20,000 nucleotides of DNA from Fonticula-like sp. SCN 57-25 (GCA_001724245.1 MEDX01000009.1:57279-77278); one strand, 5' to 3'; positions 418 through 19,849 are shown, counted from the first letter of the stretch. Notes: generated by a model not told the origin, from the letters alone. A program made the numbers and translations.

Positions 418-2140
418 TCACGCCTTTTTCGCCTCTGCCAACTTTGTCTTTAACCTCGCCGTCTCCATATCGAGATCGAGCAGCGACTGCCTCAAGCTCT
501 CGACCACGTCCGCGCGTCCCTCCTTCTTGTGCTCTGCAATGTACCGCACGACCTGCGCGCGCTGCACCTTGACAACGTCCATCTGATCAAGGATGGCGTC
601 CACTTCCTTATTGCTGCTCCCTTGGGCAGCGCGCGCGGGCAGCTCGGGCGGCGTGGCGTGCGTGTTGGCAATCCAACTGAACAGGTTGCTCCACCGGCGG
701 GTGTCGCCCGACTCGGAAGAAGCCTGCATGACCGGCGACGCGGCGGAAGTGGCGGGAGATGAGGCGGACACGGCAGGGGACGGCGGCGCCTTGAGGTCCT
801 CCTTGGTGAGGAGCGGGAGGGCAAGCATGTGCGTCTGAAGGTAGTCATTCGCGGCGGCATTCATCGTCCTAAAGTGGAAAATCAGTATCAGAAAGGTACA
901 AAAAGTGCCACAAATACACAGGAAAAAGTCAAAAATACACAAAAGGCATAAAAAACCCCCTAAAAGAGTCAACGTACTGGTGCAGTCTTCTCTGTGTATG
1001 GTCGTCGTCCGCCAATGGTATCGCATCAATTCGCCGCGCAACGGCGTCGTACGCGTGATAAATATCCATTATCTCCTTGCGCATCCGCTGCCCCTCGGCA
1101 AACAGCCGCAGCCGCTCCTTCTCCCCTGTCGTCGACCTGCACAATGTCAGTCAAAAATCAAGGGCAGAGTCAGGGGCATACTCGAGGGCGCGCAGGTGCG
1201 CCTCGTATGGCCCGCAGCGCAGGGCGGCCTGGCGCTGGAGCTTTTTCATGGCCTCGTAGATGAGCACGATGGGCGGCCGCGGCGGGTCGGCGTTGCGCTC
1301 CTGCTTGTGGCGGAGAAGGCCCCAACAGGCGGCACAGGCGCGCACGTGGGGGATGGAAGGGGCGGGGCTCTCGGGAACAACTACAAAGGAGTTTAGATAT
1401 CCGGAATTAATTGTCAACGATGAACATCAATGCAGGCAAGTATCATCATCATCAGCATCATCATCAAGACCAGCGCAACATCGACAAGTTAAGCGACTAT
1501 AGCCAAAACAAAGGCGCACCTCGTAGAAGCGGGCGCTGGTCCAAAGCGATGAGAATGGTGCACTTTGGCTTATTGCAGGTGACCGCCCCGCAGAGGCGGC
1601 AGTTGTGCTTGCGGCCGATCCCGCACGGGTCGTCGCAGACGCTGCACTTGCTGCCGTCCTGCCACTTGACTACCGACTGCTCCTTCTCATCTACATCAAA
1701 CGAATAAGCAAGCCAATGAAAAGGTAAAGGTAAAGGAAAGGAAAGAAAAGCGTACGTCGCTTGAGGGGGAGCGTGATCGTGCGGTCCTCCTGGATCTTTA
1801 GCAGCTAAGGATCGCAGGTTAGAAAAGGAATCAGCAGAAAGGAAAAAGCGCGCCTACCTTATCAATTCGCAATTCGAGTCGCGACACTTCCAGCTCGGCC
1901 CTCTCAAGCAGCGGCTTCCGCGCCCGCCGGAACGCCTTCCAATGGCTCCGGGTGATCCCCACTGTTCCCCGCAACCGTCGTCAGCACCAGACACACACAC
2001 ATGATCATCGCGTACGGTATGGATCGGACTCGATCTCCTCCCTATGCAAAGACGGCACAAAATTAAGTTCAAAGGGCGCTACGCGAGTGGAAAGGGCAGG
2101 AGGGGGCGTACGGCGGCCGTCGCTCGTCCGGGCTCGCCAT
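418..2140 (-). CDS. RBSN: Rabenosyn-5 / Vac1(Pep7)-like FYVE-domain endosomal Rab effector, 8 exons
   Basis: Exons (minus): 2140-2112, 2041-2016, 1961-1858, 1804-1756, 1690-1520, 1380-1182, 1136-978, 868-418; all GT-AG and in phase. Motifs: GITRSHWKAFRRAR..LELRIDKLL; FYVE EQSVVKWQD..CSVC..RKHNCRLCGAVTC...VRACAAC; AYDAVARRIDAIP..QRRLHQ..AANDYLQTHMLALP; C-terminal Rab-binding-type helices QVVRYIAEHKKEGRADVVESLRQSLLDL. Confidence 0.85.
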
Positions 2141-8016: not shown

Positions 8017-8405
8017 GGTGTGTAGGCAGGCTGGCTCATTCCGTTGATCGGACGAGTCGGTTTGTGCCTTAGTATTTGGATTTCGTGGCGAGTTTGGTGA
8101 ACGCATGTTAGATTTGAGTATTTAGTAGTTGTTTGTTTTGTTGGTATCATATCATAGTACAAAGTATTTATTGATATTCGCAGACGTTGTTCCTTGACAT
8201 TCCTATCACAAAACTATTGATTTTTATTTTCCCCTAGTACCAATATAATATAGTACAGTAAAATAAACGTCTTGCGCGATACTATACCGCTCTTTGCGCA
8301 ACCAACATAAAACAATCTGCATCCATCGAATTATCGTCGAATCGTCAAATTTGACAATTTGTCAAATTTTCCATCTGTTGACTCTTTTGCCTCGCTCCCA
8401 ACAAG

Positions 8406-9602: not shown

Positions 9603-9671
9603 CTGATTGGATGGATTTGGTTGTGACTCGGGCCTGATTGGACGGATCTGGGTTTGCCTTGATCTGATTGG
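9603..9671 (+). promoter_or_regulatory. Three phased inverted CCAAT boxes (CTGATTGG) upstream of the PAK gene
   Basis: CTGATTGG at 9603, 9634 and 9664 (31 and 30 bp apart); the last is ~50 nt before ATG 9722. Confidence 0.6.
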
Positions 9672-9721: not shown

Positions 9722-11776
9722 ATGCTGAGCGGCAAGTTCACCTCCAAGCTGCGGATGCGCAAGTCGCAGTCCACCTCTGATCTTATCAGCGGGCCATTCA
9801 ACTTTGAGCACGGTGTCCATATTCATTATGATCCGGTTGAGAAGAGCTACACGGTACGCCGAGATTGGTGCCCCACCTCCCGTCTCTAACGCGCGCTCCT
9901 TTCTGCGTGTTTTGCAGGGATTTCCCGATGTGTGGCACGAGGCGGTGCCGGAAGGGACAAAGGCCGAGCTCGCGAGCACGCAAGAGCTCAAGGTCGGGTT
10001 GGAGGTGCCAAAGTTTTCTGAAGGTACGCGTGCGCTCATGGCACTGGTCCGATCGTTGCTAAACAAGCCAGCAGCGACCAAGCGGCCAAAGGCATCCGGC
10101 GTTGGCCGTCTAAAGATCAGCGAGCCGTTCAATATGACACACAAGGTCCACGTCAACTTTAACGCGGAAACGGGCTTTCAGGTACTTTTCCTTCTTCCCG
10201 TGCTGATGTTTTGCTCATTGCCGTGTTTCAGGGGCTGCCCGACGACTGGCATCACCTGCTCAAAGGCTCCGGCGTTTCAGAGGACGAGATCGCCGCGACG
10301 AACCCGCGCGTGCTCGAGAGCGTAATGCGGCAGTTTCACAAGCGTTTTGAGAGCCAGGGCAGCGGCGGGACCGGCGAGCGCCGCTCCGCCACGCCGCCGC
10401 TTCCAACGACCGCGCCACCGCAGACCCTGCTGCCCACGTTGACAACGCTGCGGCGATCGCGCTCGGCAGAGATTATTGTGTACGCCACGATATTCTTTTG
10501 CATTGTTCGAAAGACGCCGAAAAAGTAACATTTGTTGTGATTTTAAGGCGTAATTTGGAGCTTGAGGCCGAGCAAGAATACCTCGACCTGGACGAAGACA
10601 CCCCCGACATGCCGCTCTCATCAATCCAGTTTAACGTAATGAACGACGCGTCCCTCCTTGGTGCGTGCATCTTTACTTGTGTTTCTGTGCTGACATGAGC
10701 GCTCTTTTTCAGACGGGCTCGTCATCAAGGCCGACCCGGCCGCCATTTACCACGACTGGGATAAGATCGGCGAGGGCGGGTCGGGAACCGTCTACCGCGC
10801 CTTTGACAAGCAAAAGAAGCCCGTACGTCTTTTGTGCAAAATATTACCCATTTTGGGGCCATTTTCGGATCATTTTTTGTGTTTATTCATGCTGTTTCCC
10901 GCGCCCAGGTTGCCGTCAAGGTGATCCCGATCAACAAGCGGTCCGAATTCCGCGTCATCCACAATGAGATCCAGGTGCTTCGGAGCAGCTGGCACCCCAA
11001 CATTGTCACCTACTACGACAGCTACCTTACAGACACTTCACTTAGCGTACGCCTGGTTGGAATAAAAGTCGGTTTCTGACGCTTGCTGCAGCTGGTTATT
11101 GAGTTTATGGACGGCGCCGTGCTGACGCAGCTGCTGTGCAATGGATGGATGCAGGAGCCGCAGGTCGCTTTTGTTTGCCGCGAAGTTCTCTCTGCGCTCG
11201 CCTACATGCACTCGTTCGACCGCATCCACCGCGACATAAAGAGCGACAACATCCTCGTGACCGCCCACGGCCACGTCAAGCTTGGTACGTATTTTTTTGC
11301 CATGTTTTTGCTCTGCTGACGCGCCGCCGCAGCCGACTTTGGGTACTGCGCGCAGCTGACGAACCTGACGCGGCAGCGCAACTCGGTCGTCGGGACGCCG
11401 TACTGGATGGCGCCCGAGCTGGTGCGCGGGCAGGACTATGGCCTCGCCGTCGATATTTGGAGTCTCGGCATCGCCGCCATCGAGATGGCCGAGAGCGAAC
11501 CGCCGTACCTCGAGCTTCCACCGCTTCGCGTACGACGTCTTGGATATTTTGTGTTTACTGACGCTTTTTTAGGCGCTGTTTCTTATTGCGACGAGGGGGA
11601 GCCCGACGCTCGAGGAGCCGTGCCGCTTCTCGGATTCGTTCCGCGACTTTGTCGGGCTCGCCACGAGCACGGACCCGTGCGCGCGGCCAGACGCGACGAC
11701 GCTGCTCAAGCACGCGTTCCTCGAGGGCGCCGGGCAGCCGGCCTGCATCGTGGAGCTGCTCGATATGCTAAAGTGA
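9722..11776 (+). CDS. PAK: p21-activated (STE20/PAK family) Ser/Thr kinase with two CRIB/PBD domains, 10 exons
   Basis: Exons 9722-9853, 9918-10023, 10072(or 10075)-10181, 10232-10479, 10548-10660, 10713-10822, 10909-11046, 11092-11284, 11333-11529, 11573-11776. CRIB1 [16 protein letters not shown]2 [18 protein letters not shown]; kinase [63 protein letters not shown]. Confidence 0.93.
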
Positions 11777-12175: not shown

Positions 12176-14670
12176 ATGGCGCCGATCACGCTAAAGATCA
12201 AGGGCAAGAACTTTATGCCGTTCTTTGAGATGGACACGGAGGATGAGCTCCAGAAAACGTGGCGGGTTTGCACTCGTGTAAAGGACTCTCTCGAGAACGG
12301 CAGCCGGCTAGAGAACCTCAGCTGGCGGTTATGGCATCTTCACTACAAGCAGAAGCGCGATGTTATCTACAAGAACAAGTCGATAGCGGCCGTTCTGGCG
12401 AGCAAGTTTGACCCCATCCCGGAGTTGGCGGGAGACCGGCGAAAGAAGCCGCAGACCGCCGCCGCCACGTCAGAGGGCGCGCCAGTGCCCGCGGACGCTG
12501 CCGCAACGTTGGCCGCTGCGGGGAAAAGCACCGCCGCTGTACCACCGCAGTCGGTGCCGGTGCCCGCCGCGATCAATCCTCAGACATCTGCCGTGGTACG
12601 CATGATTCCCATCGCCTAATTGATGCTGACGTTTCCTTTTGATGCAGCAGGCCGAGGAGCGCCGCGACGACTCGCCGTTCCCGCACCAATTTAACTCTCA
12701 CCCCGGGAATGTAAATATCCATTTCACGTCGGACGGCGCCATCTCCGTGTCGGGCGAGGTCGAGGATCTTTTGGGCGGGCTCGGTAGCACGCTCTTTTCG
12801 GATCCGCTCACATTCGACTTTGAAATTCACCCGCACACAGAGGTACGCTTGTTATATGTTTTCTATGGCAAAATATCAAGTTTTGTATTGTTTATGTGGT
12901 CTTTTATGGTCACCTTGAAGAGTACTCTTGAGTTCTTTACTCTAAGTACTCTGTATTCTTGTCTTGGTTCCACTCTATGTTCTACTCTGTACTTTAACCA
13001 GCTGTTTACTCTATACTTTACTCTATGTTTCACTGTATCCCTGTTCCCTTTCCTAACTCTTCCTTAGCAAAACTACTGGCCAGACATGTCGAGCAGCCTC
13101 GCCGCCCCCCCCGCCCCCCCCGCCGCCCCCTCTCCCTCCTTCCTCGCCCCCGCTCGCCCGCCGCCGCCGCCGCCACTCCCGCCGCTTTCCATGATGACGT
13201 CACAGCAGCAGCCCACTGACGCGTCGTCAGCACTTGCTGCTGCCCAGGCGCCCATCGCGGCGGCGGCGCAGCCAATGGGAGGCGTTGATTTGTTGGCGCC
13301 GTTTATTTCGCCGGCGTTGCTCGAGGCGGCTGACGCGGCAGAAATTCAAAGAGTGCGTTGTTATATTGGTGTATATGTGAGTGTGTCATGTGTGAGTATA
13401 TTATCATGTATCATTTCATGTTGTGTGATCATGTCATGTTGTTTATCATGTATCATGTCTTGGTATCATGTGTGCCTCATCATGTGTGATAGTGTTCATG
13501 TACCTATGTTTTCCATTCATCTTGTTCACCCACTCACACGCTGACTCAGCAAATGAATGTCCCCGTGATGCACCGCTTCCGCCCCCACGACCTCTCCCTC
13601 CCCTCCTCCCCCTTCTACCTCCCCCAATCCCCCCAACAACAGCAGCAGCAACAAGCCCTCTACAACATGCAGGTCATGCACGCCAAGGACCCATCCTCCC
13701 CCTTCATGACGTCATCAACCAGCCCACGTGGCGCGCGCCTTTCCCTTGGCGGGTCACCGAAAGCGCCGCCATTGGACGGCTCGCTGTCGTGCGTCAACTG
13801 CGGCGCCACAACGACGCCGCTGTGGCGCCGCGCGACCAATGGCGGCGCACTTTGCAATGCGTGTGGACTTTACCAAAAGCAGCATCAGCAAGATAGGCCG
13901 CGTCAGTCGCCGTCGTCGCGGCGGGAAAAGGAAAAGGCCGAGGCGCAGACGGAGACGGCGGTGTGCTCGAATTGTAGGACGACGACGACGCCGCTGTGGA
14001 GGCGGAGTGAGGGGGGGAGTGGGGCAATGTTGTGTAATGGTGCGAAAATGAAGAGGGAAGGGAGGAAATATGTTATGTTTGTAGTGGGAAAAGGAATTAT
14101 TGTTGTGTTTGAAAGGGAAAAGGAAAAAATAGTGTAGTATTTGTAGAGGGAAAAGGAAAATATTGTTGTGTTTGTTGTGGGAAATTATGTTGTGTTATTA
14201 TTACTTTAGTGTTGGCTTGTCATGTTGTTGTGCTTGTAATGGGTAATTTTTTACGTTCTTGTAATGATGACTATCTTGTGATAATGACTATCTTGTGATG
14301 ATATTGCTTTCTTGATATGTTGATATTCCATCTTTTTCTTTTGTGTTGTTCGAATGCTGACGACTTTTCAGCGTGCGGACTTTACCGCAAGCTTCACAAT
14401 GACGACCGCCCAATCTCAATGAAGACTGACGTCATCAAAAAACGGCAGCGGTACGAGCCGGGTGGCGGCGGACCCGGTGGAAAGCGCGGGAAGCGCGAGG
14501 CATCATCTTCGCCCGTGCTCGCCGCCGACGCTGCCACGAATGGGAATCACCTTAGGAGCATAAGGCCGACGGGAGATGCGCATGTAAAGATGGAGCAGCA
14601 GTACATGGATGCGGCGATGGCGGTGGCGCCGCAGCAGGCGGCTGATGGCGCACTGCGGCCAGCATCATGA
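12176..14670 (+). CDS. GATA transcription factor with an N-terminal DUF1752 (AreA/Gat1-type) motif and two GATA zinc fingers, 5 exons
   Basis: Exons 12176-12595, 12648(or 12651)-12842, 13068-13352, 13550-14039, 14372-14670. [26 protein letters not shown]; finger 1 [22 protein letters not shown]; finger 2 [44 protein letters not shown], split by intron 14040-14371. Confidence 0.92.
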
Positions 14671-14831
14671 AGATGAGGATGTGACCATGTGTCGTTGAGC
14701 GTTAATATGATGAATGTAACTCTTTTGTACTCTTTTTTGTACCTTTCTTTGTTATAATACTACGCATTTGACATCACAGTTGCCTTTCTATATCATTTTT
14801 GGGTCCGTTTTTCATCAAAGCACAGCATTCA

Positions 14832-14891
14832 CTTGAGGGGCATTTGTTCGCTTGAGGGGCATCAGTTCAGCATCAAATCACTTGAGGGGCA
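14832..14891 (+). promoter_or_regulatory. Three exact direct repeats of CTTGAGGGGCA upstream of VPS33
   Basis: Copies at 14832-14842, 14851-14861 and 14881-14891; ATG at 14925. Confidence 0.55.
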
Positions 14892-14924
14892 GTTGCTGCT
14901 GACCTGCCGAGGTGTTGTTTGGGG

Positions 14925-17833
14925 ATGGCCCATCTTTCAACGGGAGCGATCAATGTCGGCATCATCCGCGACCTTGCGCGGCGCGCCTTGATAGATGCGC
15001 TGGACACGGTGCGTTCCGTTTTCTCTTTTTAATATATACGGCTTTTGCTGATGCTCGGCCGGGATTAGGTGAGCGGCAAGAAGGCCATGGTGCTGGACTC
15101 GCTGCTGAGCGGCCCGCTCGGCCTCGTCTCCGAGTACTCGATGCTCAAGGAGCACGGCGTCGAGAACGTGTACCACCTGCAGTCGGGCCGCCTGGACACG
15201 ACCCAGCGCAACATTGTCTACATTTGCCGGCCGGAAATGATCTACATGAAGTACATTGCCGGTACGCCCCTTTCGCCCTGGCAAGTGGCGATGACTGACG
15301 CGATGCCGCCGCTGCGCAGATCATATTCATATTCACAACAAGGCGGGCGACAATAGCAAAAAGTATTATGTTTTCTTTGTCCCCCGCCGCTCCCTCATCT
15401 GCGAGCGCGTGCTCGAGGAGGAAGGCGTGTTTGGCAACGTGACGATCAGCTCGCTCAACATGGATCTCTTCCCCATCGACAACGACATCCTTTCGCTCGA
15501 GCTCGACAGTTCCTTCCGAGAGCTCTTTTTGGTACATTTTATATCTAATTTTATGCTTTTTTGTTCATATTTTCTGACGGTGTTTTTTATTTCAGGATGG
15601 CGATCGGACGTCGCTGTACTACGTGGCGCGTTCTCTGATGAGCATGCAGTCACTGTACGGCGTGATCCCCAAGATCTACGGCAAGGGCCACTGCGCGCGC
15701 GTCGTCGCCGACATGATTTTGCGCATGCGGCGGGAAGTCGCGAGCGAGGAGAACGCGATCGCGCCAGAGATCGACTCGATCATCCTCATCGACCGCATCG
15801 CGGTACGCACCATTGGATCTCGCATCGCAGCGGCATCTCATATGGGAAATGATTATAGGACCCTATTACGCCGATGCTGCAGCAGCTCACTTATGAAGGC
15901 CTTATCGACGAAGTGTTTGGCATCCAAAACAGTGCGTGATCTTTTCTCTTTTCATGATCTTAAGCATGATCCCTTGCATGATCTTCATGATCTTGATGAT
16001 CTGCATGTGATCTCTTGACCATTTTCTTTCCTTCCTTTTCTTTCCCTTTTCTTTCCCTTTTCTTTCCCCTTTTCTTCCCATTTCCTCTGCTTACCCTTCT
16101 TTTCAGCCCATGTTGATCTTGAACCGGCGATCACTGGCCAAAAAGAGCGCCGCAAGATCCCCCTCAACTCTGGCGACTCCCTCTACGCCGACATCCGCGA
16201 CCGCAACTTTGCCGTCATCGGCCCCATCCTCAACAAGTCCGCCAAGCGCATCAACGCCGAGTACGAAGAGCGCCACTCGGCCAAGACGATCTCGCAGATG
16301 CGCGACTTTGTCGGCAAGCTCGGGTCGATCCAGCAGGAGCATCAGTCACTGAGGATTCGTGCGACATTTTTTTGAGTGGTTTGGAATTATGGGTTAATGG
16401 TATATTGGATAGATACGAATGTGGCAGAGCAGATTATGCTGCTGACGAGGGAGCCAGAGTTTCATCGCAGGTTGGAGGTTGAGCAGAGTACGTCATGAGA
16501 TGAATGGGAATTGGGAGTGTATGGGGAAGAATATGGGGATGAGAGTGAGAGTGGATATGGGAAAGAGTATGAGTATGAATGTGGATATGAGTATGAGTAT
16601 GAGTATGAGTATGAGTGTGGATATGAGTATGAGTATGAGTGTGAGTATGAGTATGAGTGTGAGTATGAGTATGAGTATGGGTATGAGTGTGGATATGAGT
16701 ATGAGTATGAGTGTGAGTATGAGTATGAGTGTGAGTATGGGTATGAGTATGAGAACATGTATGAGTATGAGTACATGTATGAGTATGAGTATGAGATCAT
16801 GTATGAGAACATGTATGAGTACATGTATGAGAACATGTATGAGTACATGTATGAGTATGAGTGTCTGTATGATTATGATGACCATCAGTGTTCCAGTTGA
16901 TGACCATGACTACCATGACTATTTTCTGTTCCTCTTCCCCTTACTAACCCCAATTCTTCCCACTAGACCTCCTCGCCGGCATTGACAGCAGCGTCAACAC
17001 CGACTACATCGAAGAGCTCATCCACCGCCAGACCCCCTTCCCCAAGATGATCCGCCTCCTCTGCCTCTACTCCTGCGTCAACAACGGCATCAAGCCCAAA
17101 GTACTCGACGCCCTCAAGCGCGACATCCTCCAAACATACGGCTATGACAAAATGTTTACCCTCAACAACCTCGAAAAGGCCGGCCTGGTAAAGAAGGCCG
17201 ACGCGCGCAATCCGTACCCGCAGCTGCGCAAGGCGTTCCGGCTGAGCGTCGACGACATTGACGAGAAGGAGCCGAATGATATTGCGTATGCGTACTCGGG
17301 GTATGCGCCGCTGTCGGTGAGGCTCGTGCAGGCGTGCTTTGGGAAGGGGGGGTGGAGGGGGCAGGAGGACGCGATGAGGTTGATTCCGGGGCCGGCGTTT
17401 GAGGAGGTGCAGCAGCTTCCCGCCGGACTTCAGCCAAAGAGTGCGTTGTGGGTAATTTGAGGGTAATTTGAGTCATTTTGTTTCATTTTGTGTGTTTTTG
17501 TGTCTTTTTTAACCCTTTTTGTGTCATTCGCCTGTCTTTTTTGACCCTTTTTGGGGTCTTTTTGGGTCATTCGTCTGTCTTTTTCTGCTCCTTTTTGTGC
17601 CTTTTCCCTTTTTAACCACCTTTTATACAGAGAACTTTGGGTCTGCGACGGGCACCAAGACGACCATTGTGTACTTTTTGGGCGGGTGCACGTACGCCGA
17701 GATCGCCGCGCTGCGCTTCCTCGAGACGCAGAGCGAGGGGCAGCGCGAGTTCATCATCGCCACGACAAAGCTCATCAACGGAAACACGCTCGTCGAGAGC
17801 ATCATTGAGCCCATTGACAACAAGCTCGTCTAG
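14925..17833 (+). CDS. VPS33A: VPS33A, Sec1/Munc18-family subunit of HOPS/CORVET, 9 exons
   Basis: Exons 14925-15008, 15069-15261, 15320-15531, 15596-15802, 15859-15931, 16107-16358, 16413-16487, 16967-17440, 17631-17833. MAHLSTGAINV, GPLGLVSEYSMLKEHGVE, FFVPRRSLICERVLEEEGV, IPKIYGKG, LIDR..DPITPMLQQLTYEGLIDEVFGI, YADIRDRNF, PNDIAYAYSGYAPLSVRLVQ, YFLGGCTYAEIAALRFL. Confidence 0.95.
16540..16865. repeat. Intronic (GAGTAT)n hexamer microsatellite with GAGTGT/GGATAT/GAGAAC/GAGTAC variants
   Basis: Tandem gagtat units inside the 479-nt VPS33 intron 16488-16966; explains the YEYE, MSMS, YSYS and ILIL ORFs. Confidence 0.95.
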
Positions 17834-18050
17834 TTATAGAGACTTTTATGCCATGTTTAATATACTTTTTTCACTGAGGACATCCAAAGATTAGATGGGC
17901 ATCTGTGGGAAAAGTTGGCCCCGCAAAAGTGGATTCGAGCGCTGTGATTGGTTGAAAAGGTCGGTTTGGGTCGGTTTTGTGCGCAGTCAGCGTGTTGTCG
18001 TCAGGAGCGGCACGTCACCACCCGCTGATTGTGATTGATTGGAGGCCGCC

Positions 18051-19849
18051 ATGTCGCTGGAGGAGGTGCTAGACTCGCTGGAGGAGGAGTTTGCGGTGCC
18101 CGCGTCGCGGCTTAACGCGAGCATGTATGCACGCTAAATGTGGTTTATTTAAGGCGATTGACGCGTGTTTGGTAGCGATGGCTTTCTGTCCGAGATGGCT
18201 GAGGGCCTTGCTGGCCGCCCGAGCTCGCTCAAGATGCTCCCTTCCTTTGTGACGCGCCGCTGCAACGGCAAAGAGACCGGCCGCTACATCGCGCTCGATC
18301 TCGGCGGCACCAATTTCCGCGCCGTCCTCGTGACGCTGCATGGCAACGGCCGCTTCACCTCGGTCCAGAAAAAGTTTGTCGTGTCGCCGGCGTACCAGAC
18401 GGGCGATGGCGAGCAGGCGCGCATCATTTTTCCTCTTTTTTGTCGCTTTATTAACACTTTATTATATTGTTTCTTTTAGTTGTTTGACTTTCTTGCCTCG
18501 TGCGTCGATGAGTTCCTGACCGAGCAAGACGTCAAGGGCGATCATCTCCAGCTCGGCTTCACCTTCTCCTTCCCCGTCGAGCAGCTCAGCATCAACAGCG
18601 GCAAGCTCATCAACTGGACCAAGGGCTTTTCCAGCGCCAACGTCGAAGGCCGCGATGTCGTGCAGCTCCTCAACGATGCCCTCCATCGCCTCGTACGCCA
18701 TCGCCTCGCCACTCTCTTTGCTGACTCAGCATTAGGGCATTAATGTGACGGTGGCCGCCATCGTGAATGACACGGTGGGAACACTCGTCGCGGCGTCGTA
18801 CGCGGACCGCGACGCCGTCTGCGGCGCTATTCTGGGGACGGGGACGAACGCGGCGTACGTCGAGCGCGTCGATCAGATCGGAAAGTGGACGGGTGGGGAT
18901 GCGGCGGGCGAGATGATCATCAACATAGAGTGGGGGAACTTTGGCCATGGCGACTCGCAAAAGGTGCGTTAAAATGAACATTTGTAGTATGTTTTATTGT
19001 ATTGATTTATTGTGTTGTTAAATTGTGTTGCTATATTGTCGTTTTTGATACATTTATCGGTCAATGTGTTGGTCATGTTGATACTTTTTTTTGCTTATTT
19101 TGATGGTCATTGTGACACATTTGACGTCATTTTGCCACTTTTTGCCATATTTTTGTCACTTTTCTGTCACTTTTATCGTTCAATTTTAACTTTCTCTCTT
19201 CCCAGTACCTGCCACTGAGCGCGTATGACATGTCGATTGACGCCGCGAGCATCAACCCCGGCGAGCAACCCTATGAAAAACTCATCTCTGGAATGTACTT
19301 GGGCGAGATCGCGCGCGCCATCATTGACGATCTTGTCCGTCGGCGGCTCCTTTTTGGTGGCCACGTGGTTGGGTTTAGTGAGCCGTATGCATTCGATACA
19401 AAGTACATGTCGGCCATCCTCGAGTACGAATATGGGTTGGTTTATGATTTATGATTGGTGGGAAGAGGGAAATGGGGTGTGCTGATTGGTGGAGAATGGG
19501 AATAATGTGTGCTGATTGGTGGAAAGTGGGCTTGTAAGTGGAGGAAAGTGAGATAAAATACATGTTCATGGGTTTCTTATGTGATTCACTTTGTGCTCAT
19601 TGGTGAAAAGCATGAGTAACCGTGTGCTGATTGGTGGATAATAATCATTAATTATATCTGATTGGTGGAAAATATTGCTAAACTACTTTTAGGGATGATT
19701 CGCCTTTGCTTGATGGCGTTGCGGCCACACTTGCTCAGTTTATTGGTTCAGTGGCGGTGTCGGCCGAGGACAGGCAGGCAGTGAGGCGCATTTGCCACTT
19801 TGTGGGAGTGCGCGCGGCGCGCTTGGCGGCAGTCGGAATCACTGCAGTG
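18051..19849 (+). CDS. HXK: Hexokinase (Hexokinase_1/2 family); 3'-partial, continues past the window
   Basis: Exons 18051-18124, 18176-18416, 18480-18692, 18736-18963, 19206-19423, 19693-19849, then an intron running off the end. LKMLPSFVT, ALDLGGTNFR, LGFTFSFPVEQ..INWTKGF, AIVNDTVGTL, ILGTGTNAAYVE, MIINIEWGNF, NPGEQPYEKLISGMYLGEIAR, RAARLAAVGI. Confidence 0.96.
19452..19670. repeat. Dispersed intronic repeat GTGTGCTGATTGGTGGA
   Basis: Exact 17-mer at about 19477, 19507 and 19622, with partial copies (TGATTGGTGG) at about 19452 and 19659, all in hexokinase intron 19424-19692. Confidence 0.8.

Follow-up and report, generated by a model that had tools for sequence, protein, structure and literature searches.

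The stretch of DNA analysed here (the window) is a 20 kb region of Fonticula-like sp. SCN 57-25 (MEDX01000009.1:57279-77278), with a G+C content of 55%. It has the character of nuclear-type eukaryotic DNA and carries many short GT..AG introns. Ten genes were modelled in the window, one on the minus strand and nine on the plus strand. Three adjacent genes, encoding an AreA-type GATA factor, VPS33 and hexokinase (HXK), contain nine long introns, and the exon blocks between these introns repeatedly pass from C-ending to G-ending synonymous codons. This switch and its relation to the long introns are the subject of the present analysis, which is based on the nine introns of these three genes in one window. 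Exon models were obtained with a dynamic-programming script followed by hand curation, the introns being predicted from DNA only, and the translations of single exons were scanned with Pfam to support the models.

The AT-rich tracts in VPS33, in hexokinase and in the second GATA finger are predicted to leave the message, because the Pfam matches continue in order across the predicted introns. The VPS33 exons cover Sec1 profile positions 1-59, 66-129, 143-210, 247-323, 358-502 and 528-575, in that order, and the Hexokinase_1 and Hexokinase_2 profile positions are consecutive over the hexokinase exons. The GATA-factor gene proved longer than the earlier note on this DNA had assumed: two upstream exons were added (12176-12595 and 12648-12842), which carry an AreA-type GATA-like domain (Pfam PF08550, E = 2.6e-13). 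Since these exons join in frame via intron 12843-13067, position 13068 opens an exon inside the gene, and the ATG at 13086 is likewise internal. Intron 18417-18479 of the hexokinase gene appears to start with GC and not with GT, as no other junction agrees with both the frame and the Hexokinase_1 profile, which continues from positions 22-101 to 103-178.

The window is represented in metagenome runs, the best of which contains 0.94 of its sampled words, and the region was also found in other assemblies. An exact 31-mer matched one contig only (L001, 1834 nucleotides (nt)), which is 99.5% identical to the window over 1566 nt, two long introns included, and which added 268 nt past the window end. 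Contigs of DNA run X2 cover 13972-14332, 15835-16528 and 18947-19491; the strain contigs come from four DNA runs and are short, low-depth pieces. Relatives of the VPS33 exon were not found in metagenome_contigs or genome_contigs, and the closest relatives in protein searches were 53-64% identical, so that no close genome was at hand for a comparison of orthologous introns.

The C-to-G switch inside exon blocks

The switch was measured from the C:G counts at four-fold degenerate sites in the first and second half of each block. The earlier note had named seven blocks with a sawtooth change of this kind, and all seven switched from C-ending to G-ending codons, with P values from 0.041 to 7e-12 (Table 1), which is far beyond chance. 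The sharpest switch was found in VPS33 exon 16967-17440, for which a C-rich start and a G-rich end had been read from the codons; here the four-fold C:G count changed from 31:1 to 6:29. This exon matches Sec1 positions 358-502 (E = 2.6e-24), and its product is 53-57% identical to its relatives over the full length. Since the encoded protein is conserved, the switch is synonymous. Beyond the window, the exon that follows the intron at the window end (known from L001) opens with a four-fold C:G count of 8:1.

A built-in control for the effect of position is provided by the two paralogous GATA fingers (13789-13830 and 13963-14004) of a single exon, 13550-14039 (Pfam GATA match, E = 3e-22). The fingers have the same residues encoded by different codons (Asn, Cys, Arg), and the finger nearer the downstream long intron avoids C in its codons. 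The short introns 16359-16412 and 18693-18735 left the trend unreset, as the earlier note had stated and as the codon strings on either side of them bear out. All three quadruplex-type run motifs in the 20 kb are located at exon edges near long introns, with the expected polarity (Table 1).

The pattern was not evident in genes with short introns, in agreement with the earlier observation. Control blocks from short-intron regions were not significant in five of six cases, the sixth being a PAK block (10909-11776, P = 0.045). For the three long-intron genes the autocorrelation of four-fold C/G within 100 bp was 0.177, compared with -0.004 (sd 0.011) under shuffling within codon families, and none of 300 shuffles reached this value; for six short-intron genes it was -0.008, equal to the null of -0.008, and 144 of 300 shuffles reached it. 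Two PAK exons in 11092-11776, which lie beside introns of 48 and 43 nt, pass from G-ending to C-ending codons and thus have the opposite polarity. The pattern had further been said to be the same on both strands. The minus-strand block 978-1380 does switch, but as evidence this is uninformative, because a C-to-G gradient stays the same on reverse complementation and the window has a single minus-strand gene.

Table 1. Gene models, exon blocks, long introns and run motifs of the window. C:G, counts at four-fold degenerate sites in the first and then the second half of a block or exon; G:C, intron counts, before and then after the switch where two are given.
Feature	Position	Strand	Description
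FYVE/Rabenosyn-type gene	418-2140	-	gene model
Short-chain dehydrogenase, MYG1, ChaC-like gene, RRM protein, COX6A-like gene, PAK-type kinase		+	gene models
AreA-type GATA factor gene	12176-14670	+	gene model
VPS33 gene	14925-17833	+	gene model
Hexokinase (HXK) gene	18051 to past window end	+	gene model
Two FYVE/Rabenosyn exons	978-1380	-	introns of 139 and 109 nt either side; sense C:G 25:10, then 3:15, P = 3.3e-4
GATA-gene exon	12648-12842	+	no gradient, P = 1
GATA-factor exon	13068-13352	+	C:G 19:9, then 5:14, P = 0.0077
GATA-factor exon	13550-14039	+	zinc finger 1 and first half of finger 2; C:G 29:10, then 9:29, P = 1.1e-5
Last GATA exon	14372-14670	+	C:G 10:7, then 4:14, P = 0.041
Two VPS33 exons and the 54-nt intron between them	16107-16487	+	Sec1 247-323; C:G 23:5, then 5:8, P = 0.01
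VPS33 exon, sharpest switch	16967-17440	+	C:G 31:1, then 6:29, P = 7.4e-12
Last VPS33 exon	17631-17833	+	no gradient; C:G 8:10, then 8:3, P = 0.25
Three hexokinase exons with two short introns between	18176-18963	+	C-ending domain 18176-18692, then G-leaning 18736-18963
Hexokinase block	18480-18963	+	C:G 29:3, then 15:23, P = 1.4e-5
Hexokinase exon, long intron each side	19206-19423	+	no gradient; C:G 6:6, then 7:6, P = 1
Exon	19693-19849	+	no gradient, P = 1
Intron	12843-13067	+	225 nt; joins AreA-domain to GATA exons; canonical GT..AG, frame continuous; mostly pyrimidine-rich; G:C 14:6, then 18:42
Intron	13353-13549	+	197 nt; G/T-rich then C-rich; G:C 36:15, then 6:18; switch 55 nt before 3' splice site; tandem repeat at 13410-13451
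Intron	14040-14371	+	332 nt; mostly purine-rich, nearly C-free; G:C 79:13 before the switch, which lies 49 nt before 3' splice site; 31-nt unit x3.9 at 14066-14184
VPS33 intron	15932-16106	+	175 nt; pyrimidine-rich throughout, no G-rich part; G:C 14:50 after position 7; 11-nt and 22-nt tandem units at 16026-16084
Intron	16488-16966	+	longest, 479 nt; C-free 6/12-nt unit array, then C-rich tail; G:C 139:10, then 9:29; switch 86 nt before 3' splice site; 12-nt unit x26 at 16565-16878; GC skew +1.00 at 16501-16700
Intron	17441-17630	+	190 nt; G/T-rich then C/T-rich; G:C 19:3, then 18:31; tandem units at 17446-17605
Intron	18964-19205	+	242 nt; G:C 32:11, then 8:23
Intron	19424-19692	+	269 nt; G-rich to within 15 nt of end; G:C 82:17
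Intron	19850 to past window end	+	371 nt, completed from L001; G:C 73:15, then 13:22
Run-of-C motif	1348-1375	-	sense strand of the minus-strand FYVE/Rabenosyn gene
Run-of-C motif	13105-13136	+	just past 3' splice site, exon 13068-13352
G-run motif	17341-17361	+	exon 16967-17440, 80-100 nt before 5' splice site at 17441

Some features of the window are of separate interest. VPS33 exon 16969-17439 is nearest to the proteins of vertebrates (VPS33A), Balamuthia and Dictyostelium, with 53-57% identity in the alignment, and fungal proteins were absent from the 120 matches listed for this exon; the AreA-type domain of the neighbouring GATA factor, in contrast, is typical of fungi. Tandem repeats of 24, 30 and 54 nt occupy a GC-rich stretch at 1-190 (Tandem Repeats Finder scores 99-162), which is probably the start of a minus-strand gene for a repetitive Arg/Ser/Leu-rich or Gly-rich protein.

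Long introns and the composition domains around them

The relation between codon choice and intron length was determined for 61 introns, for each of which a jump was defined as the four-fold skew in the 120 nt upstream versus the 120 nt downstream. The link to long introns that the earlier note had drawn was borne out, as the jump rose with intron length (Spearman rho 0.51, P = 2.7e-5). Introns of 150 nt or more, the definition of a long intron used in pooled tests (eight such introns in this test), had four-fold C:G counts of 35:76 upstream and 97:42 downstream (P = 1.6e-9), with a positive jump at seven of the eight. The five introns of 85-149 nt gave 42:41 upstream and 52:24 downstream (P = 0.025). 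The 48 shorter introns showed no such jump: counts were 112:79 and 142:90 for the 15 introns of 60-84 nt (P = 0.62), and 276:210 and 252:247 for the 33 introns under 60 nt (P = 0.055, in the opposite direction). When all introns of 100 nt or more were taken, C:G was 131:58 within 120 nt after the intron and 52:104 before it (P = 2.5e-11). With the GATA gene left out, the counts were still 88:44 after and 38:65 before long introns.

No comparable gradient was seen beside intergenic AT-rich tracts, where the first 50 codons of ten genes gave C:G 108:112 and the last 50 codons of nine genes 93:102 (P = 0.84). The pooled GC skew was 0.00 in the 150 nt upstream of the ATG (range -0.33 to +0.26) and +0.12 in the 150 nt past stop codons. 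The sign of the skew flips every 200-500 bp and tracks the exon/intron structure; replication-scale skew domains with sign changes at origins were not seen in the window. The earlier proposal that a process at the DNA level is anchored on AT-rich tracts finds no support, for such tracts in general, in the flat coding flanks of the intergenic tracts. It also disagrees with the position of the switch in the introns, which is off-centre, at 78-94% along the four longest, and linked to the 3' splice site.

Each long intron forms a tandem-repeat array with private units. A mobile element shared among them was ruled out, each intron having its own repeats and no family being common to them; Rfam families at gathering scores and tRNA were likewise absent from the introns. 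On the sense strand the intron bodies contain G 0.28, C 0.07, A 0.23 and T 0.42, with C dropping to zero further in, and their GC skew ranges from +0.59 to +1.00 and their AT skew from -0.08 to -0.33. The last 40 nt contain G 0.10, C 0.30, A 0.17 and T 0.43 and have a GC skew of -0.50. No GC skew was present in the 48 short introns (-0.08 and -0.04). A G-rich, C-poor 5' part is followed by a C-rich, G-poor 3' tail in seven of nine long introns, the repeat units at the two ends not being mutual complements. Of 13 introns examined, nine change from G-excess to C-excess 15-91 nt before the 3' splice site; the change falls 82-94% of the way along three of the four longest introns and 78% along the one completed from L001.

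Each long intron thus lies between two composition domains, and the pattern is best read as a property of the transcript tied to long introns. The C-poor domain starts about 120-200 nt upstream of the 5' splice site and takes in most of the intron; the G-poor domain takes in the final 15-90 nt of the intron and continues for about 160-200 nt in the following exon.

Length variants of introns were found in the strain contigs, each in one low-depth contig: X4 has a 12-nt insertion behind 1739 and a 3-nt deletion at 19675, and X6 has 38 extra letters between 972 and 973. Such length changes inside introns fit unstable intronic repeats. There are 8 occurrences of CTGATTGG, a motif of reversed CCAAT type, where 0.77 would be expected, with three copies just upstream of the PAK gene start (9603-9671) and four inside intron 19424-19692 (19482-19665). 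The copies in the intron may mark an internal or antisense promoter, or an enhancer.

Codon routes and predicted RNA folding

The skew was produced by every kind of synonymous change available. At two-fold sites, Y-ending codons had C:T 71:19 after long introns and 44:36 before them (P = 0.001), and R-ending codons had A:G 16:41 after long introns versus 58:407 elsewhere (P = 0.004). Codon families were exchanged as well. Before long introns, Arg was encoded by AGR in 12 of 34 cases versus 9 of 188 elsewhere (35% versus 5%; P = 2.9e-6), and Leu by TTR in 10 of 41 versus 17 of 222 (P = 0.003); after long introns, Ser was encoded by AGY in 8 of 40 cases versus 86 of 210 elsewhere (P = 0.013). 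Purine:pyrimidine counts at four-fold sites were 90:191 after long introns, 159:87 before them and 654:809 elsewhere, and the four-fold A/T share was unchanged (0.19, 0.21 and 0.18). First and second codon positions shifted mildly (C:G 266:191 versus 208:224, P = 0.003).

These figures bear on the mutational origin of the skew. The signature of deamination is present in the intron bodies (C 0.07, T 0.42) but not at four-fold sites (A/T 0.21 versus 0.18), and it is contradicted by the shift of Arg from CGN to AGR. Simple cytosine deamination is therefore disfavoured, because C is avoided by transversion routes and the A/T share at four-fold sites is not raised; the same two observations argue against the process at AT-rich tracts mentioned above. 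A bias in the protein itself, with Pro-rich exon starts and Gly-rich ends, had also been suggested. It was seen when the low-complexity GATA gene was included (Pro:Gly 48:24 versus 25:32, P = 0.012) but not when this gene was left out (23:16 versus 18:22, P = 0.26), and the Pro and Gly counts of the VPS33 exon are like those of its relatives.

Folding was predicted for the exon edges and for the arms across the long introns. Exon starts that follow long introns fold weakly: over their first 100 nt the mean minimum free energy (MFE) is -20.0 versus -33.2 kcal/mol at an equal GC content of 0.62 (P = 0.003). Predicted duplex energies of arms across long introns ranged from -44 to -101 kcal/mol. 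In a test modelled on bridging introns (see below), the intron arms alone gave z-scores of -2.10 to +0.60, and pairs made across different introns were equally stable. The predicted folds also joined intron bodies to the tails of the same introns (47 pairs), to about the same extent as arms across introns. Sequence-specific RNA pairing, across introns or within exons, was rejected as a candidate, the arms being no better than self-shuffled arms or arms of other introns. Of the G-rich/C-rich pairing across introns that the earlier note had envisaged, the complementary composition stands, whereas the real arms have no advantage over shuffled or exchanged ones.

Known systems, rival explanations and significance

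An exon C-to-G switch that depends on intron length was not found described in the open-access literature, subscription journals and supplements lying outside the search; the pattern is strong and apparently undescribed so far. The nearest published relative is the gene-level skew of unicellular fungi (PMC3315797), in which the sense strand is C-biased at the start of genes and G-biased at the end, with four-fold sites and amino-acid usage both affected and the skew continuing into C-rich promoters or 5' UTRs and G-rich 3' UTRs; simple C-to-T deamination is disfavoured there, and the cause is left unsettled between mutational and adaptive ideas. The C-first, G-later polarity is common to both. 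In the fungal case, however, the unit is the whole gene and the skew is a modest average over many genes, whereas here the unit is the exon block between long introns and codon choice is near all-or-none in the best cases (31:1, 6:29). A gene-level 5' C and 3' G skew at four-fold sites is absent from the window (108:112 versus 93:102, P = 0.84). The pattern is thus not simply the fungal gene-level skew, because the coding flanks of intergenic tracts lack a gradient and the pooled skews around genes are weak and mixed.

Other relatives involve introns directly. Bridging introns, with (AC)m-(GT)n repeats in fish and GGG/CCC in humans (Lin et al. 2016, PMC4691745), share with the present introns the expansion of simple repeats and a G-rich 5' part that faces a C-rich 3' part. 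They differ in that the arms here are no more stable than shuffles, the domains reach 150-200 nt into the exons, and the C-rich part of the intron is just 15-90 nt. The splicing of bridging introns depends on the structure and not on U2AF2; the introns described here are known from sequence alone. Splicing-coupled strand asymmetry and exon/intron discrimination by skew are the subject of Touchon et al. 2004 and Zhang et al. 2008 (via PMC10030826). The asymmetry, an excess of G over C and of T over A on the sense strand of introns relative to splice sites, is found here in the long introns and not in the 48 short ones. There it consists of small genome-wide averages, whereas here long introns reach +0.6 to +1.0, short introns have none, and exons change sign internally. 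In vertebrates, more exonic splicing signals occur beside longer introns (Dewey et al. 2006, PMC1713244); the exon-edge signal described here likewise grows with the length of the flanking intron (rho 0.51). The vertebrate signals are short enhancer motifs within tens of nt, unlike the broad shift over 120-200 nt, of opposite sign at the two exon ends, that is seen here.

The explanation that we favour, tentatively and with a little less than even confidence, is selection acting on the composition of the pre-mRNA near the splice sites of long introns; from the observations above we infer that selection rather than mutation made the pattern and that splicing is the function served. Selection is favoured over cytosine deamination because the pattern is tied to splice sites with the orientation of the transcript, depends on intron length, uses all synonymous routes including transversions, and shows no rise in A/T. 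Normal introns here are about 45-75 nt, and the splicing machinery would be one built for introns of about 50 nt. The rare long introns would then need a C-poor donor side and a G-poor acceptor side, and the exon parts of these domains would be built through every degenerate choice (four-fold C or G, two-fold T or A, and the family switches of Arg, Leu and Ser). A G-poor stretch would be unable to fold strongly on itself and so could keep the branch site, the 3' splice site and the exon start open. In addition, domains of complementary composition could zip loosely, with no fixed register, and might bring distant splice sites, or both exon ends, together. In its general idea this would resemble the bridging introns of fish and humans described by Lin et al. 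(2016).

Several points weigh against this explanation. The exon ends that precede long introns show no weaker folding than controls (-31.0 versus -29.9 kcal/mol). Against composition-preserving shuffles, the pairing of arms gave z-scores of -3.0 to +1.1 in 24 tests, mostly within 2, and the pairing of exon-block halves gave -2.7 to +1.2; the MFE folds pair exon halves (62-68 pairs) as readily as arms across introns, and a useful pairing geometry is not singled out by the predicted folds. The effect is also incomplete. Intron 19424-19692 has no exon skew jump (-0.45), a gradient is missing from four exons beside long introns (12648-12842, 17631-17833, 19206-19423 and 19693-19849), and the last GATA exon, 14372-14670, turns G-rich although it is not followed by an intron. 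To fix nearly every codon choice along 200 nt would require strong selection at a large number of synonymous positions, the introns are model predictions, and the support is limited to nine long introns in three adjacent genes.

The main rival, which we consider unlikely, is strand-specific mutation at long, unstable, R-loop-prone tandem-repeat introns. The G-rich sense strand would promote R-loops or other single-stranded states on transcription, the exposed non-template strand would lose C, and the resulting skew would strengthen the R-loop, with the effect spreading into the upstream exon. From exons to intron bodies, C changes from about 0.30 to 0.07 and T from about 0.20 to 0.42 at an unchanged G of 0.28, which resembles sense-strand C-to-T mutation, and two-fold sites before long introns are enriched in T. 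The long introns are built of tandem units, one intron repeat of the window differs in length between strains (the insertion behind 1739 in X4), the effect is uneven among introns, as expected of a history-dependent process, and the quadruplex-type G-run of exon 16967-17440 is 80-100 nt upstream of the 5' splice site at 17441. Such mutation would, however, cover the C-poor half only: the G-poor exon starts would need a mirror process on the template strand, yet the G-poor intron tails are T-rich and not A-rich (A 0.17, T 0.43). Nor does it agree with the level A/T share at four-fold sites, with the change of Arg from CGN to AGR, which requires a C-to-A transversion, or with the lack of sense-strand C loss in short introns and at four-fold sites elsewhere in the same genes. 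Immunoglobulin class-switch regions are intronic tandem repeats with a G-rich, R-loop-prone non-template strand, and in vertebrate B cells they are targeted by a dedicated deaminase. Unlike the situation in those regions, the four-fold-site data here argue against deamination.

In principle, the gene-level skew of fungi could be repeated inside genes, with long AT-rich introns acting as internal gene boundaries through pausing, termination or internal initiation. The same polarity is described for unicellular fungi by McLean and Tirosh (2011, PMC3315797), and intron 19424-19692 has four copies of CTGATTGG, the motif seen three times upstream of the PAK gene. We nevertheless regard this as improbable: the intron with the promoter-like motifs is the one with no exon effect, the gene-level gradient is absent at four-fold sites in the window and the skews of the untranslated regions are weak and mixed, and the effect far exceeds the average skews given in the fungal work. 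A strand-symmetric DNA-level process centred on AT-rich tracts, such as recurrent double-strand breaks whose resection exposes opposite strands on the two sides, or a replication-type asymmetry, is very improbable. It would account for the polarity, G-rich left and C-rich right of the tract on either strand, which matches what 5'-to-3' resection around a break would be expected to leave, for the rise of two-fold T on the left and of A on the right, and for the flip in intergenic tract 8073-8387 (+0.27 to -0.33). It fails on the coding flanks of intergenic AT-rich tracts, which lack a four-fold gradient (108:112 versus 93:102), and on the pooled skews of 0.00 upstream of starts and just +0.12 past stops. 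The switch, moreover, is off-centre in the longest introns, the intron tails are not a mirror image of the bodies, four-fold A/T is not raised, and replication units are far larger than blocks of 300-500 bp. Chance, low-complexity protein sequence or an assembly artefact might be suspected from the Pro and Gln runs of the GATA protein and from the derivation of the window from metagenome data. This is close to refuted by the autocorrelation, matched by none of 300 within-family shuffles, by the conserved Sec1-family exon that forms the sharpest case, by the counts that remain when the GATA gene is left out (88:44 after and 38:65 before long introns), and by the independent assemblies that cover the region (L001 and the X2 contigs).

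Returning to selection on the pre-mRNA, it is possible, if rather doubtful, that the domains amount to a two-part composition code that marks long introns: a C-free donor side and a G-free acceptor side, which would override codon preference for 150-200 nt into the exons and would be needed by a machinery for short introns to handle the rare long ones. Coding sequence would thereby carry a further level of information. Should such a code apply across the genome, exons and introns would be defined by a signal of a new kind, and the position-dependent choice of synonymous codons would be among the strongest known.

In one exon of a conserved protein, 60 of 67 C- or G-ending four-fold sites obey a rule set by their position relative to long introns, at sites that are usually deemed nearly free. 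The gradients can mislead gene finders, measures of codon usage and tests of selection in metagenome-derived eukaryotic contigs, whichever cause applies. If mutation is the cause, the window would hold a very strong local strand asymmetry linked to unstable intronic repeats, with a bearing on the unexplained 5' C and 3' G skews of fungal genes. If splicing is the cause, the pattern would show how an organism with introns of about 50 nt copes with introns of 200-500 nt, and would offer a clean system for testing composition-based pairing or accessibility of splice sites.

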